Assembly (NCBI GenBank): GCA_000826855.1
Contig: JTLS01000006.1
Coordinates: forward strand, 1 to 60,574
Source: Basidioascus undulatus
Lineage: Eukaryota
DNA: 60,574 bases
Direction of reading: 5' to 3'
The translations under genes and the position numbers were made by a program. Positions 27,430 through 37,132 of the stretch are shown here, in pieces. The number at the start of each line of letters is the position of its first letter. The stretch's first letter is position 1. Below the pieces are notes generated by a model. The model saw only the letters and a list, made by a program, of their open reading frames with translations, was not told where the DNA came from and ran no database searches.

Positions 27430-27638
27430 GGTGCGATGGATGGTTAGAGCGGGGTATGTGAAGGGTATGCGAGATCTATGAGCGGTATGAGATAGGAGAT
27501 GCTTTGTTGCAGGTAGAGGGGAGAGTCGGATGGCAAGCATGGTCCTGGGGGCGACTCGTGGAGCTTCGTTACGTCAAGAGTGCGGCGATTATGTGGAAGG
27601 CCCGAAGGTGGAGGGTCCTAAATACCTAGTACTATTGT

Positions 27639-27654
27639 TCGGACGTAAGTCCGA
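27639..27654. promoter_or_regulatory. Inverted repeat TCGGAC-N4-GTCCGA (CGG-N8-CCG), candidate Zn2Cys6 site upstream of the AKR gene
   Basis: Perfect 6-bp arms about 210 nt upstream of the AKR ATG. A TTACGTCA CRE-like site lies at about 27569. Confidence 0.25.
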
Positions 27655-30600
27655 TAACATCGACATGTGGTCCTTCAGATTCATATTTTCTGATGTTGCA
27701 GGTGAGAAGAGAACAGTCAGTAGCAAAGCAGTACCAGCTTCGTTTGATTGTCGGACTGCAGTATCAGCAATGAGTGAGTCTGGATCTTCGTGGCCAGTTG
27801 TGCCTGATTGCGCCGACCGCCATGGCCTTCGAGATGAAATGCCTACGATGAGGGGCAATGAGGTCGAGCTACTAATATTCCGAAGTTTTGGAACTATGGC
27901 AACGTACACCTCGGCAGCAAGGGCGGTGGAGCTGCGTAGTGCAGCGGGCCATGAAAGGCGTTGCTCTAGTTAAAGTGTTTGGCCTGCTTTCCAGCCATGG
28001 CACGCGCGAAATGGATAAACATGCACCGGAATATGTCCATTTATGCGAGATGCCCCAATAGTGACCGACACTTCAAAGCCCACGGTACGAATGAGGGCGT
28101 TGCAGGAGCTGTCGGGCGGGATTGCGCTGGCACTGCCCACCTCCATATGTCGATCGAAAGTTGCCAGTCTGGTCTGAAGGGTAGAATATACTGGAAATGA
28201 GATTATTTCAGGAATTCAAAAGACTGTTTGGATGAAGTTGAAGGGCTGCCTTCCCGCCCAACGCTCCGGTGCAACAACGTGCGCCCTCTTGTCCTGGGTT
28301 TGAATCCCGTATTGGTGCACCTTCCGTCGATGCATGAGATGGCGACTCCAATGCCACCCCCATTGGTCTGACTTTCGAGCAGAATCTGCATCTCTCACTG
28401 ATAAGGGCCTGGAATGTGGCTGCACAGTGAAACAACGTTGAGCCTCCCAGCGCCTGCAGCCATTGAGTGTTGCCAGCCATGTGCAAGACTGGACAGCATC
28501 AGTGATTGTTGAGTTCCCAGGACGCAGCTCCTCGGCATGGTTACTGTTGTTCAACAAAGCACGGTCCTACGTTGTGAATTCTGCAGAAGACCGGCGTTGC
28601 TCGATCATGTGCAGGTCGCTGCTGTGGCCTGTCCCGCACAGACTTCCATATCCGATTCCCGAAGACAAAAAAAAAGAGAGGCTCTTCCATGCACAACTGT
28701 GTGTAACTTCGGCACATACAGAGGAGAGCGTTCGCGTTACCGATTGACCATCGACGTCGACTGCTTCCGGCATCCCCTCGCGCAACTCCTTTCAACTTTG
28801 CACAGCGCAGTCTGTACTCACGGCCGCACACCTTGTGTCCTCGAGGAACGGCTGAACGTTGTCCTGACCAATGACGAAGGACTCCAATGCCAAAGCACGT
28901 TTGGCAGCGATGAAATGGGAGATCCTGCTCTCGGGTTACGCAGAATGATGGGCTGCGCAGTGGTGCGGGCCTCGGCCTGCCTGCCACGGCAAGCTGATGG
29001 AGCAAGCGGACGAGCTGCCAGCAGTCGCAGACGTCGGCAGCTTAAGGGGAGTCGTTCTCGATGCATGTAGGTAGCCTTTTTCACAGAGGCTTTGCCGTTG
29101 CAGTGAAGTTTTGTACGACAAACACAGAAAGGAAAGAAGTCCTCGAGGCGACTCGGCGACTCGAAAGCCTTGGATGAGGGGCACCACTCACTACTGATCT
29201 GCAACGGCGATCATGTCCGTGCGCTAGTGAGCGTCCTGTTCGGCCCGGTCTGAACCTCAGAAGGCGATGCACGTCTTCGTCCTGGTTCGTGTGCACTGAT
29301 CACAGAGACCTTTCAGATGGTCGTCGTCGGCTCTGAAGTCCATGTAAACTGGAAAAGAAAAAGTAGGATATAAGAAGAAGAAGAAGCAGCCGAAACGGGA
29401 AACGGCGCTTCGGACGAGGCTTCGCAAAAAGCGCCTCGTGGCAGGAAGCTGTGACCGAAAATCTGCTTCCGTTTGTAGAGGTGTGCTTGCAGAGATTTGT
29501 ATTGGGTCCTCCGCTTGCTATAGTCAGCAGCACTTGCCAAGTTGCGTCAAGCGCAGGAGAGGCCTGTGCTGGTTCCTTGCCCTCCGCCCTCCACCTTCTC
29601 CGAACCCCTCGTCCTCCTCATACTGCACGGCCAGCTACGACCCAGCAACGATTGTTCGCGACACTCCGACGGACGCGTGCCAGTCGCGCAAGCGAGTAGA
29701 CCGGGAAAAGGGTTCAACACTGCTCGCTCTTGCTCGCTCTGCCCCTGGCCTGCCCTGGTGCGTTTCACCCTCGCAGCTTCCCTGGCCTCCTCCTTCTCGA
29801 CCCAAGCCCCGCACGGCGCTGACCCCCGGCCTGCCCACCGCTGCACCTCTTGACCCTCTGACCCGATATTCTGTGTCTGGCTACACACCCGCCCTCCTGC
29901 ACCATCATTCTCCTTGCGACCCGGTCACCGCCCGCCGTTTCAGCCCTGTAACTCGCAAGCAGCCCTCGGAGCCTTTGCACGCTCTCGACTGCACCTCGAG
30001 CACCGCAGGCTTCGACCGCACGCCCCTCGAGCTTCCGCCGCCGCTCACGCCCTCACTGATCAGCACGGCACAACACTTTCCTCCACCGTCCCCCGGCCCA
30101 TCCCTATCACTCACACTCGCTCCCCCTCTCGGCCTCGCCTAACGCGACGATATCCGCCCGCTCTCGCACCTGATACCTGATACCTCTCCGCGACCGCTCC
30201 TTCGTCTCTCTTTCGTGTGCCCATCGCATTCCATTCCAAAAGGGTCCTCGCTGGTCTTGGCCCATCCCAGCTGCACGGGTTTCTCTCGACACCAGGTGAG
30301 CCAGTTTCTCGGTCGCTGCGAAGGGTCGTCGTGGGCAACTCTCGCTAGTCGGGCTTGCGGGACGCGGGGGTTCGTGCGCCTCTTTCCTTGTGCTATCACC
30401 GAGTGCACGGGCTCAGGGCACGCTGCCTTACCTGGTCTACGACGGTCATGCCTTGCGCCGTTGAGAGGGAGTATTACGTTGCTCAGGGGTTGCGTTTCGG
30501 CAGTCGTCCTCAATGAGGACTCGTCTCTGATTTACATATCTCCGCAACTCACTCCCGCACCCGTTAATGAATCCGTCTGCCGTGCAATGCGCTCATCACT

Positions 30601-30733
30601 CTTCACCTTTGCACCCTTAGACAGCTGCGCTCAAGCCCCCCGACGCTGCGAGCTCGACGTCCCCGCACCTGTCCGGCAGCGCCCGACTCCTCCCTCGCCG
30701 TCGTCTCCGGACGCACCGCACTGCTCCGCCAAG

Positions 30734-33700
30734 CTGGAGTCTTTTGATCAGCCTTCGTCTGGCGACTGCTACCCCCTGCCGGCCGGGGCGGCGCATTCTC
30801 CTTCGCACTCGCACCCTTACCCACCTCTGCATTCTCTTCCACCCTCCCCGCCCACATACCTGCCTCTCTCGCCCGATAGAACCTCAACTTCCTCCGGCGC
30901 TCCGTTTTCTACCCCTCCTACAACCTACTACTCCGACCAGTCGTATCCCTATTACCCGACGCCGCCGCACGAGTCTGCAGCGCAACACCCGCAGCAGCAC
31001 ATCGACGACGTCTTCTCCTACGAATCCGCCAACATAGACGACCAATCTTCCTTCGACCCAGGGCCTGCGCCGTCAGGCGGCGCAGACCAGGCTCCCGCCG
31101 GCGGGCGCAGCCGCTCCGACTCGTACTCGCTCTCCTACGACCCTTCCGCACCTCCCTCCGCCTCCATCGGCCCTCTCGACTCGCCCGCATACCCTCCTCT
31201 CCAACAAGAAGCGCTCGCGCAGGCCTTAGGGCTGCAGCAGTCCAACCCCGCGAGCCCCGCCTCCCCCGTCAACTTCTCCGCCGTAGAGTCGCCCGCGTTC
31301 TCGCGCCGGACGTCCGCCGCGTCCCAGTTCTTCGGCAGCGTCGCTGGCGATGCGCCCACGCCTGCCTCGACGCACGGCTTCGGGCGGCCGCCGAGCGTCC
31401 CCGCCCTCGACGGGCAGTCCGTTGCAGAGTACGGCCAGTCGGCGTCCGAGGTCGTCTCGCCGTCGACGTCGGCCGCTCTCGCGCTGTCCCTTGCGCCTAG
31501 TCCCGTCATCGAGCAGCCGGGATACTTCCCGACTCAACAACAAGCACAGCCCCGGCGGCATTCACAGCCGGAAGCGGCGGACCAGGACGGCCGGCCAAGC
31601 GGCGTCTCCACCCCGACGGGCAACTCGGCGGACATTGCTGGTCGTGTCAGCCAGATCCTCGAAGGGTGCGATTCTTCACAGCGATCTTCTCGAAATCTCC
31701 AAGCCGTTTCACTGACGCCGTTGCTCCTTCAGCATGGTATACAACGCCCACTCCGCTCGCGACGCCTTCCTCCACGGACGCGACGCCGATGCGCACGCGC
31801 GCCTCGGCGACCTCAGCAAGGGCCTCGAGCTGGTCGGCGACCTCGCCGGACTGGGTCCTGCGACCGCGCCAAGCGGAGGAAGCAGCGCGAACCCGAACAC
31901 GCCCACGGTGGGGCCGTCGCAGCCTCCGCAGGCAGTCGAGATGTCTGGCCCGCCAAGCCTGTCAAGCGGCGGCGTCGAGAGCAGCCCGTCGGACACGTCC
32001 TCGAACCCGATGAAGCGCTCCGCACCTCCTTCGCCCGTGTTCGACTCGCATCCGCTCCCTCCGGCCAAGCTCTCGCGGCTGTCCGAGCCCGCCGAGTCGC
32101 CGCCGCGCCAGCCGCCGCTCCTGCAACACTCGCATTCGACTCCAATCGTGACGCGCTTGACGGCGCAGGTTCCAACCTCCGCTCAATCGGCGGTACCGCT
32201 GCCTGCCGCCCACGCTATCCCGCCTCCCGGGTTCGTCCCCGGCTTCCCCGCGCCCCCCGCGTCGGCCCCGCCCTTCAGCCACGTCCCGTACCAGCCTTCA
32301 CCGCTCGCGATCTCCTCCACACCCGTCAGTCCGGTAATCGCGCCCCAGATGCAATCACAGGCCGTCCCGAACGAGCAGCCCCTCCCGGCCGGACAGCCCG
32401 GCGCGCCATCGGCGGCGGCGGTACCAGCGTGGCCGCCTCCGGCTCTGGCTCCGTACGCGCGGAGCGGACTCGATCTCGGCGTCGGGATGAGCCAGACCGC
32501 GTTCCCCGGCGCGAACGTTGCGCACGGCGGCCTCGCGGGCGTGCCCATCGCCGACACGCGCAAGACGCGGTCCGCGAGTCTGTCGCACGCTCTCCAGCGC
32601 CCGGGTCCGTTCCCGCCCTTCGTCGACGACCCGCTCCGCCGCATGTCGCGCACGCCGAGCGTCGGGTCCGCCCCGCTCACGGCGGACTACGCTGCTACCC
32701 CAAGTCCCATGCCGGGCTTCGTCATGGAGGGTGCGACGTCGACTCCGCCACCCAAGATGCCCGTCACGCGCCGCCGCGCGCAGACGTTCTCTCACGAGGT
32801 GCCCAAGGGCGACTTTGCCATCGGCTCGTCGTCCAACCCTCCACCCGGCTTCGTTTCTGAGCAGTTGCCGACGGGTCCGCCGTTCGAGCCTGCGCTCAAG
32901 GCCAAGCTCGACAAGCTCTTCCTCGCGTTCCTCAACCGCATCTGCTCCGATCGTATGTTATCGCCGGTCCCTCACTTTCATCCGCGAACGAAGATTCTAA
33001 TCTTGTCTGCTTTGGCTCTGCAGTCGAGGCGACCGATTCGAAGGGCGAGCCGATTCATCAGACGCTCATGGCCAAGAAGATGCAGCGCCTGGACGAGTCG
33101 ACCGACTTCCGGCCGTTCAAGTTCCGGATCCAGGCGTTCACCATGGCTTACTACGAAGATGTGCGTTGCTTGTGTCGACCTTTGTAAAGTTCCCTGTGTG
33201 TTGACAACATCCGGGTGTTCCCACAGCTGCAACGGCAAGGCCTCGGCGACGACATCATGCCCGTCAAGCGCGTCAAGCAGTATCTCTGGACCTCGCCGTA
33301 CATCGCGCGCTTCAACGAGGACGGCAAGAAGGCCAAGTCCAAGGGCAACCACATCTGGAACATCTCGGCACGGAAAAAGCCAGATGGCGGCTGGGAGTTC
33401 ATGGAGTTTGTGCGTCCTCCCCTTAGGTTGCCTGTGGGTTTGATCGAGGCTTACCTGGTTGTCGTGGTTGTCTTAGACGCGCAAAATCTCTGGGCAGCCG
33501 CCGTCGGTCGCGTACGTCGGCCTCCGCTGGACATGGACGCCCCGCCTGTGGGACCCGCAGAGCTCCGTCGCGAACGTGAAAGCGCACTTCTCGTCCCCGG
33601 CGCTGCCGTACTGGCTCGGCTGGGACCACGAGAACAACACGCTGTCGGGCGTGCCGGACGCGAGTGCGAGGAGTACGGAGATCGTGGTCGAGGCGAGGGT

Positions 33701-34316
33701 ACCGTCAGCTTCCCTTACGGCAGGTCTTCCTATACTTACGTGACGCGCTCCACAGTACTCCCACAACGGCACCGACCACCATCTGCGCACGTCCTTCATT
33801 CTCAACATCGCCCCCTCCAGCGTCGGTTCCAGCTCCCGTCCGTCCATGGTCGGCTACAGCGCAGCGGTGCCCGGCATGCAGCTGCCATCCGCCCAGCCGC
33901 CGCCGCAGCTGCCTCCGAGCGCCTACGCCAACGCCGAGACCGTTCCTCCCCCGGGGCACATCCCTCCCACCGTCACATACCCGCCGCCGCTGCCGTCCGC
34001 GACGCCGTACACCACCGAGCAAGCCCGGGCGCAGTTCCAGCAGCTGCACCTCGCGCCCGCGCAAGTCGCTGCTCCGCCGACGTCTCTGCTGCAGGAGGCG
34101 CCGCTGCCTGCGCCCGTGGGCCTTGGCGCCCCTTCTCTCGCGATGCAGCAGGCGGGCGTCGGCCCTTCCTTTTCCGGCACGTCACTGCCCTCGCTCGACA
34201 CCGCCGCTTCCGCGATGTCCCCGGCGCCCGCAGCGGCAGAAAGCCAGGGCGGATCGACGGACTCTATGGTCAACGCCCTGATGCAGAACGCGGCGCCGCC
34301 TGCGCCGGCGCCATGA
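30734..34316 (+). CDS. Uncharacterised fungal protein: long Ser/Pro-rich N-terminus, ordered core (..KSKGNHIW..) and C-terminal Ig-like/He_PIG-type domain; start uncertain (CTG 30734, ATG 30587 or ATG 31734)
   Basis: The open frame 30621-31665 splices in frame (intron 31666-31732) to MVYNAHS... Core reads LDKLFLAFLNRICSDLEATDSKGEPIHQTLMAKKMQRLDESTDFRPFKFRIQAFT..YLWTSPYIARFNEDGKKAKSKGNHIWNISARK..AYVGLRWTWTPRLWDPQ..SSPALPYWLGWDHENNTLSGVP. TGA at 34314-34316. Confidence 0.8.
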
Positions 34317-34741: not shown

Positions 34742-37132
34742 CTACTTCAATATAAGCCGTACATTCCCGAGCTGTCCTGGCGCACTCGCTGCTCCCGCAA
34801 AGTCCTTCACGCCGCCGACAACAGCCAAGATACGCTCAAGATCCGACCAGCCACGCGCGTACTTGACGCAGAGCTCATCATCGTGATGCGTGCCATCGAG
34901 CATAGCGAGCAAGCTGGGCGGATAGCCGAGCTGCACGGCGAGCGGTGGTCCACGGCCAGTTTGCCCGCTGTCAGTCCGGGCGCGATGGCGAGCAGCCGGG
35001 GCGATATCGAGCGGCGGCAGGGAAGTGTGGAGCGCCTTCGGAGACTGCCCAGGTGCACTCCGCTGAAGGAGCTGCTGCTGCTGCTGGAACGAAGACGAGA
35101 GGAGCGATTTACGAGTGTCGAGCGGCGACCCTGACGCGGCGCCGACCGTGCGCGATAACGAGGAAGAGAAACCGCCGGTCGCGGTGTGGTCTGACCGCAT
35201 GGTGAAGCCAGAAGCGCTCGCGTGCCGATCCGACGAGCGGTTGGTGAATCCGGACGTATTGACGCCATCAGAGGGCGAGGAGCCGCCTCGAGTCGAGAAC
35301 GTTCGCCCGCGCTGCGGATCGTTCGGCCTCGCACCGGGGACGATCGTCGCTGCGGAGCGACGGCGGTCGAGAAGGATCGGCCAGCGGTGGACCCGGCGCA
35401 AGAAACCCTTGATGACGCCGAATGTGACGAACCGCCGCGCGTCGATGCCATGCACGGTGTCGGCGGAAGTAGACACTAGCCAGTCGTGCACGGTCGTGTT
35501 CGGTACGACGAGTTTGGCGTAGAGCTGGAGGAGGATGGGGAAGGCAGGTAGAGGATAATCTAGAGGGTGTCTTTGCGTCAGCTGCGAATACAGTGCGAAG
35601 ATGACTGTAGCGGTTTACCCGTCCTCGTAACGTATAGAGCGCATTCTTCTTGAACCGACGGGTCGTCCACCAGATGTGCGACTGCGGGGTTCCAGGCGTA
35701 CAGGTTGGAGAAAGAGAAAATGTCGATCATGAGGATCGCTTGCTGTGGCAGGGCACGTCAGCACCGCGGCGACGGTCGATGGTCAGACAAGTCTGCTTAC
35801 ATAGTACCTGGAGGCCGGCGGGAAATTGAACAGACGTTCTAAGCGCGAGGGCATTACTTCACGTACAGTAGATGCTCCAGAGCGGAGCGTGTCAAAGCAG
35901 GATCGGCGTCCGCGAGTTCAGCTATTCGGCGGACATGGTTGATGCCATCGATGAACGGGATAACCTACTTAGCTGCGTCAGTTGCCCGGCATCTTTCAGC
36001 TGCAAGTTCAAGTCGGCTCACTTTTGATAGAGTCATGTCCCACGCGTCGTCCGTCAGTTTCTCGAGGTTAATGAGGCATATCGGTACCCTGCGACACCAC
36101 GAGAATCAGTATTCAGCGTCGCTGGAAAGGAACGGGAACTTACATCCAATCCTCGACCTGTGGCGGATTCGGAAGATGTGGAAATACCTTGAGGTTGAGT
36201 TGCGTATCCTTGATCGGTATCGAGACCCTACGTGGCCGTTAGTCATGAGAGGTGCGCGCCTATTGAGAGATGTACGTACTCGCCAAGGCTACTCAGGTCC
36301 TCGTACATTATCTCAAGAATCTCGGGTATCTGGGAAGCCGTCTCCGGAGAAGACAGGAAGGCCGTGCTCTCCTGTTACGGGCCGAACTGTATCAGTCTCG
36401 ACGGTATCACGGCTAGCGCGAGCGTAAGAGCCGGACCTCCAGCTCTTGTAGGACTCGTGCACATTTCCGTACGACAGGCTCGTAACAGCTTACGTCCGCT
36501 TGCGCCTCAAAGACGAAGCAGACGTTGTAGTAGAATGCATTGCGCTCGTAACGATCGTCGTTGATAACGACTGGGAAACCGATAATCTTGTATCGGCGGG
36601 CTGTGCATGTGACTAGGCGTCCGCAGAGCTCAATACGATAGAGCGTCAGCAGCGCAGAAGGAGGGAGGGCCCCGTGCCAAAGAAACACACCGCTCGTTGG
36701 GGAATGACATAGTCAGAGATGGAATCGAAGCTGAACAGGTGAGGGTTCTCTTCGGAAAGCGGCTCAACCTGACCGCTTTCCATGCTGGAGATGCGCGACA
36801 TCCGAGTGGGCGATACGCTGGACGTTCGCGAACCGCCCGACCCGCGGCCGGCGCGCTGCTGGTAATGATGAATGTGTCGCGGGTCGAACGAGAACACAGA
36901 CGAGGACGGGCTGAGGAGGCGCGGCGTCGGCGCCGACTTCGCGGCGATCGCGCCTTCCGGCACTTGGTGTACTATGCGCGAGCCTTGGGCCGCATCGAAT
37001 GTCGCGTAGAAGAGAGCGGCAATGCACGGAAGAAACGATTCGGATGAGTTGGGCGTGGCAGAGCCCACCCTGCGGAGGTTCGAGCGAGTGAGCTTCTCTC
37101 GAATGAGACTGATCGAAAGTGATGGCTAACAT
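34742..37132 (-). CDS. NPR2: Nitrogen permease regulator 2 (GATOR1/SEACIT subunit)
   Basis: IAALFYATFDAAQGSRIVHQVPEG, FDSISDYVIP, LCGRLVT, KIIGFPV, YERNAF.YN.CFVF, YEPVVRK.ARVL..LE, WDMTL, PFIDGINHV, IDIFSFSN.Y, IDARRFVTFGVIKGFLRRVH, LDGTHHDDELC. Confidence 0.93.

Follow-up and report, generated by a model that had tools for sequence, protein, structure and literature searches.

Where does translation start in a gene whose N-terminal coding region holds no Met codon? The question is raised by a locus on contig JTLS01000006.1 of Basidioascus undulatus (assembly GCA_000826855.1), positions 1 to 60,574 of which make up the window, a GC-rich fungal chromosome segment whose coordinates are used throughout. 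A first-pass annotation of the window proposed that splicing of an AUG-free leader leads into an N-terminal extension without Met, and that the protein, under translational control, starts at a near-cognate codon, with the CTG at 30734 as the candidate. That interpretation is partly supported by the present analysis. The locus holds the 5' end of a conserved basidiomycete gene of ordinary type, with seven exons (six coding) and ~1100 codons. The Met-free region is translated, and the AUG at 31734, the first one in frame with the downstream exons after it, is internal to the protein. For the start itself we tentatively favour an ordinary AUG at 30587 on an unspliced leader, with a probability of roughly 0.4. 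Either way, the locus would be of a known kind, controlled by upstream open reading frames (uORFs) or initiated at a near-cognate codon.

The Met-free region is the normal N-terminus of the protein

The coding part of the gene comprises the following features.

30621..31665, + strand: exon B, a Met-free, Lys-poor, disordered N-terminal region in frame 2, with coding signal from ~30650.
31666..31732, + strand: intron of 67 nt (GTGCGA ... CTGAC ... CAG), with homology across its junction.
31733..34316, + strand: rest of the gene, with exons 31733-32952 (exon C), 33024-33160, 33227-33409, 33477-33698 and 33756-34316, as judged from the open frame, homologs and invariant columns.
31734..31736, + strand: Met codon internal to conserved helix 1 and not the start of the full protein, as judged from its alignment column.

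When joined, the exons from 30621-31665 through 33756-34316 give a single open frame that ends at the stop codon at 34314-34316. Removal of the intron at 31666-31732 joins GG/C in frame to ATG 31734, and introns of 71, 66, 67 and 57 nt separate the exons from 31733-32952 to 33756-34316. With log-odds trained on codons of the downstream exons, frame 2 scores positive from ~30650 to 31640 and both other frames score negative; the score reached between 30650 and 31640 is 154.8, against 207.6 for exon C. No frame of the leader, which is C-rich and of similar composition, gives a comparable codon signal. Between its stops, frame 2 runs open through 905 codons (30143-32860), a span that takes in ~400 codons of exon C in a non-coding frame; long open frames arise commonly by chance at this composition, so that open frames alone mean little here.

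Homology agrees with the codon statistics. The exon at 33227-33409 (61 residues), used as a query, matched 181 proteins at E<=0.001 among 188 candidates; the top match (E 4e-22, 75% identity) has none closer in that collection. Homolog comparisons were made with 120 family members among these 181 matches. In a BLASTP comparison of the spliced product with the 120 homologs, two alignments begin before the junction at residue 347, namely those with Kwoniella proteins P0111, from its own residue 326 (E 9e-9), and P0118, from residue 335 (E 1e-8). A jackhmmer profile of 67 residues around the 31665/31733 junction recovered the helix that spans the junction in 77 homologs, giving a 78-row alignment. 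In this alignment the column of Met 31734 holds Ile in 61 rows, Leu in 10, Met in 4, Gln in 1 and Ala in 1, with 1 gap, and a conserved Leu three positions before it is encoded in exon B. The conserved helix begins ~13-20 residues upstream of Met 31734, and the homologs have 27-520 residues before the helix, mostly 120-360. As Met 31734 lies in mid-helix and relatives carry long N-terminal regions, translation must start upstream of 31734. Homology across the junction likewise confirms the intron at 31666-31732, shows that the exon upstream of it is translated and identifies the encoded region as the ordinary N-terminus of the family. The coding-like, Met-free frame to 31665 and its in-frame splice onto ATG 31734, both noted in the first-pass annotation, are thus upheld by codon statistics and homology. 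The same annotation was right in treating the N-terminal extension as translated, but 'extension' is a misnomer for what is the family's normal, disordered N-terminal region.

It is the composition of this region that is unusual. Exon B encodes no Met among 347 residues, whereas the rest of the protein has 20 in 774 (Fisher P=0.00056) and exon C alone has 8 in 405 (P=0.0069). None of 72 homolog N-terminal regions is Met-free (mean Met content 3.1%, minimum 0.6%). Lys is scarce in these homolog regions, with a mean of 0.7% across the 72, and is absent from the 310 residues that follow CTG 30734. The rest of the protein has 3.0% Lys, and the Lys-poor N-terminal region (30734-31663 here) could be a 'lysine desert'.

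Beyond the helix, the sequence of the region found no relatives in any search made. With the exon B protein as the query, a word-index search of longer proteins scored none of 7998 candidates, phmmer run exhaustively on 1.84 billion representatives returned 0 relatives, a metagenome scan gave 188 pattern matches of which 0 were confirmed, and phmmer against the 120 family members left 0 matches after the bias filter. Neither a profile of the 72 homolog N-terminal regions nor an N-terminal profile of the Malassezia clade matched the N-terminal region of this protein. N-terminal local alignments reached a maximum score of 50, against a shuffle maximum of 49.5. The best domain found with a 50-residue N-terminal profile scored 15.4 bits, which was equalled by 67 of 1000 shuffles (P=0.067), and a position-specific scoring matrix of an N-terminal motif had its best match at 30731 (P=0.60). 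A match of 'FAPL' to homolog P0002 was considered as an anchor for the start and dropped, as the motif is not conserved in the clade of P0002.

The leader is long and depleted in ATG

The + strand is unusually poor in ATG towards the 5' end of the gene, as was observed in the first-pass annotation, and the positions of all ATGs bear out the two ATG-free stretches that it described, 29345-30295 and 30621-31349. The last upstream ATG stands at 29342 (ATG-TAA) and is followed by those at 30448, 30513, 30567, 30587, 31350 and 31734. The gaps from 29342 to 30448 (1106 nt) and from 30587 to 31350 (763 nt) exceed every other ATG-free gap on the + strand of the window, where the runner-up measures 646 nt; on the minus strand the maximum is 589 nt. 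The drop at the upstream edge is sharp, from 20 ATGs in 28345-29344 to 0 in 29345-30447.

29345..30447, + strand: ATG-free stretch and presumed long 5' leader, with ATG density falling from 20 per kb to 0 at 29345.

Expectations were taken from dinucleotide-preserving shuffles, 2000 per interval. We see 0 ATGs against 5.75 expected in 29345-30295 (P=0.0015) and 0 against 6.20 in 29345-30447 (P=0.0005), which confirms that the leader is both long and AUG-depleted. The interval 30296-30620 has 4 ATGs against 2.75 expected, which is unremarkable, and 30621-31349 has 0 against 1.46 (P=0.20), so that depletion in this last interval lacks significance at the nucleotide level. Just 3' of the drop in ATG density, at 29368-29374, is a TATA-like ATATAAG. 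We take 29345-30447 to be a long 5' leader, whose transcription start is inferred. Scans of 26-32 kb for tRNA genes and Rfam families gave no matches. Between the upstream minus-strand gene and the ATG-free leader, a spacer of ~1.8 kb (27500-29340) shows no clear coding signal on either strand and is unusually long for this gene-dense window.

Homologous loci were used to see how the family handles its leaders. The conserved exon served to fetch 76 metagenome loci (best identity 78%), none of which was close enough for alignment of the leader. The survey covered the 26 of these loci with a full 6-kb upstream flank, near-identical duplicates (e.g. L020, L028, L030, L032, L036, L039, L045 and L047) being left out. 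Twenty-two of them share one arrangement: the ATG-free gap that is longest upstream (238-621 nt) closes at the ordinary start ATG of the gene, which opens an open reading frame (ORF) of 211-292 codons. These ORFs align to annotated homologs at residue 1-4, or in the case of the fused model P0099 at residue 308. Gap and start lie ~3.0-3.7 kb into each of these 22 loci (L011, L016, L018, L019, L023, L024, L029, L035, L037, L043, L044, L049, L050, L052, L053, L056, L062, L066, L067, L068, L070 and L072), and the other four (L002, L008, L074 and L075) do not show the pattern. The family thus has a long AUG-free leader followed directly by an ordinary AUG, and the long leader free of upstream AUGs (uAUGs) looks like a family trait.

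A candidate intron within the leader

The four ATGs at 30448-30587 all lie between a donor at 30296 and an acceptor ending at 30620, as had been reported.

30296..30620, + strand: candidate leader intron of 325 nt, with donor CAG/GTGAGC and acceptor TTAG/, as judged from splice-signal scores and base composition.

Splice signals were scored with position weight matrices (PWMs) built from 24 introns of the window, 40-215 nt long, that had been inferred by coding-frame chaining. Among these introns GTGCGT is the commonest donor (8 of 24), followed by GTGAGT (4), and a CTGAC or CTGAT branch motif stands 9-44 nt before the acceptor in 15 of the 24. The candidate intron scores 4.4 for its donor, 6.0 for its acceptor and 5.3 for a branch site 90 nt from the acceptor. 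The sum of 15.6 falls at about the 70th percentile of the training introns, and the signals of the predicted intron exceed chance in its acceptor and in the AG-free tract before it. Donors this strong occur 2.5 times per kb and, being so common, are not evidence for an intron; two others in the leader are usable, at 29758 (GTGCGT) and 30374 (GTGCGC).

The first-pass annotation had called this intron well formed. Its donor (CAG/GTGAGC at 30296) and its acceptor (TAG/ ending at 30620) are indeed present, with scores within or above the range of the 24 training introns, but its branch distance and its length fall outside the training range. The nearest good branch match, CTGAT at 30526-30530, is 90 nt before the acceptor, compared with 9-62 nt in the training introns, and no CTRAY motif occurs within 60 nt of acceptor 30620. 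The GCTCAT that had been named as a branch-like site is not of the CTRAY type, which 15 of the 24 window introns show. At 325 nt, the candidate is longer than all 24 training introns.

A proposed start at an ordinary AUG on an unspliced leader

If the mRNA keeps 30296-30620, the full-length protein would start at the in-frame AUG 30587, the reading that we rate at about 0.4.

30587..30589, + strand: in-frame ATG and candidate ordinary start, giving a protein of 1133 aa, with G at -3 and C at +4.
30448..30516, + strand: uORF1, present only if the leader is unspliced, 22 codons in frame 1.
30513..30530, + strand: uORF2, likewise confined to an unspliced leader, 5 codons, its ATG overlapping the stop of uORF1 (ATGA).
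30567..30620, + strand: uORF3, again confined to an unspliced leader, 17 codons, out of frame and overlapping ATG 30587.

From ATG 30587 the frame runs into exon B with no stop, in a frame 2 that is open from 30143; the earlier statement that intron retention would expose this ATG in frame is therefore correct. Three short uORFs (30448, 30513 and 30567) would precede AUG 30587, the third of them overlapping it out of frame, an arrangement reminiscent of the uORF control of GCN4, cpc-1 and ATF4; the output would be set by leaky scanning and reinitiation. The 49 residues encoded by 30587-30733 would then be a lineage-specific addition taken from the leader, CTG 30734 with its strong context may be a relic of an older start, and the splice-like signals would be chance occurrences, or serve a minority of transcripts only. 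In a variant of this scheme, an in-frame ATG arose in the leader and the ancestral start at 30734 then decayed to CTG, which would leave a non-coding-like stretch of 49 first residues and a relic Kozak context.

AUG 30587 is favoured in part by the ordinary AUG starts of the family (22 of 26 loci). Major proteoforms that rely only on a non-AUG start are rare. The codons at 30650-30733 are mildly coding (+5 over 28 codons), which calls for a start upstream of CTG 30734. Over one third of Cryptococcus genes have been reported to carry uAUGs (Wallace et al. 2020, PMC7049704). Codon usage after ATG 30587 is weak (-0.34 per codon, with A at the third position in 6 of 21 codons); it was considered as evidence against this start and dropped, since ~10 plausible (putative) starts in the window average ~-0.06 per codon and two of them lie below -0.34, which puts ATG 30587 within the control range.

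Several features weigh against a start at AUG 30587. The acceptor at 30620 is stronger than chance would predict: acceptors with PWM scores >=6.0 number 43 in 121 kb (both strands) and only 1 in the 3.55 kb of the gene's own sense leader and exons, and an acceptor as strong arose in 158 of 5000 shuffles of the relevant 144-nt interval. Acceptor 30620 is preceded by a 102-nt tract that is AG-free and 67% pyrimidine, a feature reproduced in 86 of 5000 shuffles. The composition of 30296-30620 equals that of five confirmed introns and is unlike the C-rich flanks, and the best composition change point falls at 30295, on a flat likelihood surface. Three uAUGs would crowd into 140 nt at the 3' end of a leader that has no other ATG over 1.1 kb. 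Arg and Cys make up 8 of the 48 residues of 30590-30733, as in the non-coding frame-2 translation upstream (23 of 148), compared with 11 of 310 downstream (Fisher P=0.0014); family N-terminal regions have at most 1.8% Cys and 6.9% Arg. A start at AUG 30587 does not explain the 0 Met among 347 residues, and the decayed-start variant does not explain the acceptor, the uAUG cluster or the lack of Met. All of these features would have to be coincidences.

A possible spliced leader with a near-cognate start

The strongest competitor is a leader spliced at acceptor 30620, from donor 30296, 29758 or 30374, such that all four ATGs are removed and the mature mRNA has no AUG before 31350. Initiation would then occur at a near-cognate codon, CUG 30734 being the best placed. 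We consider this somewhat less probable than a start at AUG 30587, though a serious contender.

30734..30736, + strand: in-frame CTG and best near-cognate candidate, giving a protein of 1084 aa, with A at -3 and G at +4.
31350..31352, + strand: out-of-frame ATG, which splicing of the leader would make the first AUG; its ORF has at least 194 codons and extends across ATG 31734.

The frame and context of CTG 30734 and the out-of-frame position of ATG 31350 are as the first-pass annotation gave them. Output from such an mRNA would be low and sensitive to start-codon stringency, and AUG 31350 would catch ribosomes that scan past, shielding AUG 31734.

The same acceptor strength, AG-free tract and intron-like composition that count against an unspliced leader favour this alternative, as does the choice of three usable donors. 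It fits the distribution of ATG, with 0 in the two presumed exons where ~7 are expected and a near-neutral number in the intron (4 against 2.75), and the contrast between 0 Met in 347 residues, 2.6% Met in the rest of the protein and no Met-free N-terminal region among the 72 homologs. The protein composition turns to the family type (poor in Lys, Cys and Arg) at ~30734, the 310 residues after the CTG match family N-terminal regions in this respect, and the only Lys codon of exon B is the AAG at 30731. Of the six in-frame near-cognate codons up to and including CTG 30734, this CTG alone has both A at -3 and G at +4. There is precedent too: leader introns in 887 Cryptococcus genes, with a mean length of 118 nt compared with 63 nt in coding regions (PMC7049704), and near-cognate starts in fungi that include Basidiomycota homologs of cpc-1 (PMC5487733).

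Against splicing stand the length of the candidate intron, beyond that of every training intron, the lack of a CTRAY branch motif within 60 nt of its acceptor, and an open in-frame ATG 34 nt inside the presumed intron. Against the CUG stand the ordinary AUG starts of the family (22 of 26 loci) and the mildly coding stretch at 30650-30733, which would need a start further upstream, yet no in-frame near-cognate codon occurs in 30621-30730; further in-frame candidates in exon 1 are GTG 30217, ATC 30223, AGG 30241 and CTG 30271. Nor is CTG 30734 followed by a stable hairpin, the sequence being less stable there than its shuffles (z +1.27 and +0.70). Most scanning ribosomes would be lost to AUG 31350, and a major proteoform with no start other than a non-AUG codon has a low prior.

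In sum, the price of the near-cognate start is this low prior plus one coincidence, the in-frame ATG, compared with the several coincidences that a start at AUG 30587 would require. By a rough estimate the likelihoods of the two are within a factor of about two. Many of the features were defined after looking at the sequence, and the weighting was therefore shrunk towards the ordinary reading. The near-cognate scenario in its complete form is less likely than not. It would have a conserved regulator-like gene with no AUG for its full-length protein, in which a predicted 325-nt intron removes the in-frame AUG and three uAUGs and leaves ~1.6 kb of AUG-free mature 5' sequence; a Met- and Lys-free domain of 310 aa would be translated from CUG 30734 in its optimal context, AUG 31350 would act as a sink guarding AUG 31734, and intron retention would bring in an AUG start.

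The consequences differ between the two. If the leader is spliced, a major proteoform of >1000 residues would depend wholly on a CUG start, and the gene would offer a natural test case for control by start-codon stringency in basidiomycetes; pipelines that accept only AUG would cut 347 conserved-frame codons or begin the protein within an intron. With a start at the ordinary AUG, this is a routine uORF-bearing gene, and what lasts is a corrected gene model with Met 31734 internal, together with the AUG-free leaders and Lys-poor N-terminal regions found family-wide.

Less probable alternatives

It is rather improbable that both mRNA forms exist in meaningful amounts as a splicing switch, in which an intron-retaining mRNA would yield the AUG-30587 protein under uORF control and the spliced form little protein or a CUG-initiated one. 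Such a switch would need both sets of signals, and both are seen, a credible acceptor and an in-frame ATG open through that acceptor. Wallace et al. (2020, PMC7049704) mention translationally repressed Cryptococcus genes with uORFs and alternatively spliced 5' introns. However, the open frame at 30587-30620 has just 11 codons and could be due to chance.

Less probable again is another 5' structure with an ordinary AUG, either a mini-exon from ATG 30448 or 30567 with a short intron, or an upstream micro-exon. Enumeration gave 40 frame-compatible combinations of ATG, GT and AG, among them one that pairs ATG 30567 with a GTGCAA donor (30582) and a GAG acceptor (30652; 71 nt) and that ends where the codon signal begins (30650). 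The mini-exon models, however, have poor donors or a GAG acceptor, stronger AGs lie at 30620 and 30624 inside the 71-nt span 30582-30652, and the upstream ATGs at 29213, 29267 and 29317 are out of frame with acceptor 30620 when read by eye. None of the enumerated ATG-plus-intron models was convincing, and they were set aside.

A start at AUG 31734 only, with 30621-31665 as untranslated leader, is disfavoured and very improbable: this AUG is the first in frame in the spliced mRNA and has G at -3 and G at +4, but frame-2 codon bias upstream of it is not far below that of exon C (154.8 compared with 207.6), the conserved helix begins ~13-20 residues before it, and all homologs checked have long N-terminal regions.

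Comparison with known systems

The closest system is cpc-1. In N. crassa cpc-1 and its homologs (Ivanov et al. 2017, mBio, PMC5487733) a leader of >700 nt carries uORFs, the reading frame extends far upstream of the main AUG with no further in-frame AUG, and isoforms with a longer N-terminus arise from near-cognate codons that have A at -3 and G at +4; the homologs studied include some from Basidiomycota. The present locus is alike in its long leader and upstream coding frame, in the uORFs that an unspliced leader would carry and in a candidate near-cognate codon in good context. The differences are that the gene here is not homologous to cpc-1, lacks a bZIP domain and belongs to an unnamed basidiomycete family; that an in-frame ATG exists here at 30587 unless the predicted intron is removed; and that the equivalent of the main AUG, 31734, lies inside a conserved helix. 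Protein-coding constraint upstream of the first AUG of the spliced mRNA is found here in the codon log-odds and in the helix across the junction, whereas the first defining feature of non-AUG extensions, a coding frame ahead of the first AUG with neither in-frame AUG nor stop, would be present only if 30296-30620 is spliced out, because the DNA holds an in-frame ATG.

Messenger RNAs of the GCN4 and ATF4 type are uORF-controlled. If unspliced, the leader here would compare with them in having a short uORF followed by an out-of-frame overlapping uORF, within a long leader that is otherwise AUG-free. The main AUG, however, would come just 20 nt after the AUG of the overlapping uORF, too close for classical delayed reinitiation.

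Other fungal examples are the Cryptococcus near-cognate starts (ACG in LeuRS, AUU in ArgRS and an upstream CUG in eIF5; Wallace et al. 2020, PMC7049704) and the non-AUG peroxisomal isoforms of fungal 6-phosphogluconate dehydrogenase (PMC7214817). These cases resemble the present one in that leaky non-AUG initiation in a fungus adds an N-terminal segment. They differ in that they provide short targeting peptides beside an AUG-initiated main form, compared with at least 310 aa with gene-level codon bias here. The gene is not homologous to the Cryptococcus near-cognate examples.

With its own family (e.g. Malassezia nana MNAN1_002450 and Coprinopsis cinerea CC1G_01185), the gene shares the invariant core, the fold, a disordered Lys-poor N-terminal region and an AUG-free leader. 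It differs in that its N-terminal region is without Met and without detectable similarity beyond the helix, and in that the relatives examined start at ordinary AUGs.

Protein family and neighbouring genes

The named family members among the matches listed are basidiomycete 'hypothetical proteins'. The spliced product passes through every conserved block and has the invariant core motifs and the domain order of the family, a helical hairpin followed by an alpha/beta plus Ig-like domain. A structure model made for homolog P0002 from a 43-sequence alignment has a confident helical hairpin at 82-138 and a confident domain at ~322-550, the remainder being disordered. Fold and sequence searches gave Ig-like and dystroglycan-type matches only, with weak similarity to He_PIG and dystroglycan. 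Pfam searches with pieces of the gene gave 0 families above threshold, and a protein atlas lookup returned unnamed clusters only. A nuclear regulatory role would be a guess, prompted by the P/S/Q-rich disordered regions and by the basic RKR patch that the family consensus contains.

Downstream, the convergent neighbour at 34766-35605 (minus strand) is a homolog of NPR2 (nitrogen permease regulator 2; Pfam PF06218, E 2e-11). Further neighbours are genes for methionyl-tRNA synthetase (38.8-39.8 kb), a CTLH protein, sirohaem synthase, SF3a60/Prp9, a DEAD-box helicase and a DUF7082 protein. The upstream minus-strand gene appears by eye to encode an aldo-keto reductase; two short exon pieces of it gave no match in Pfam.

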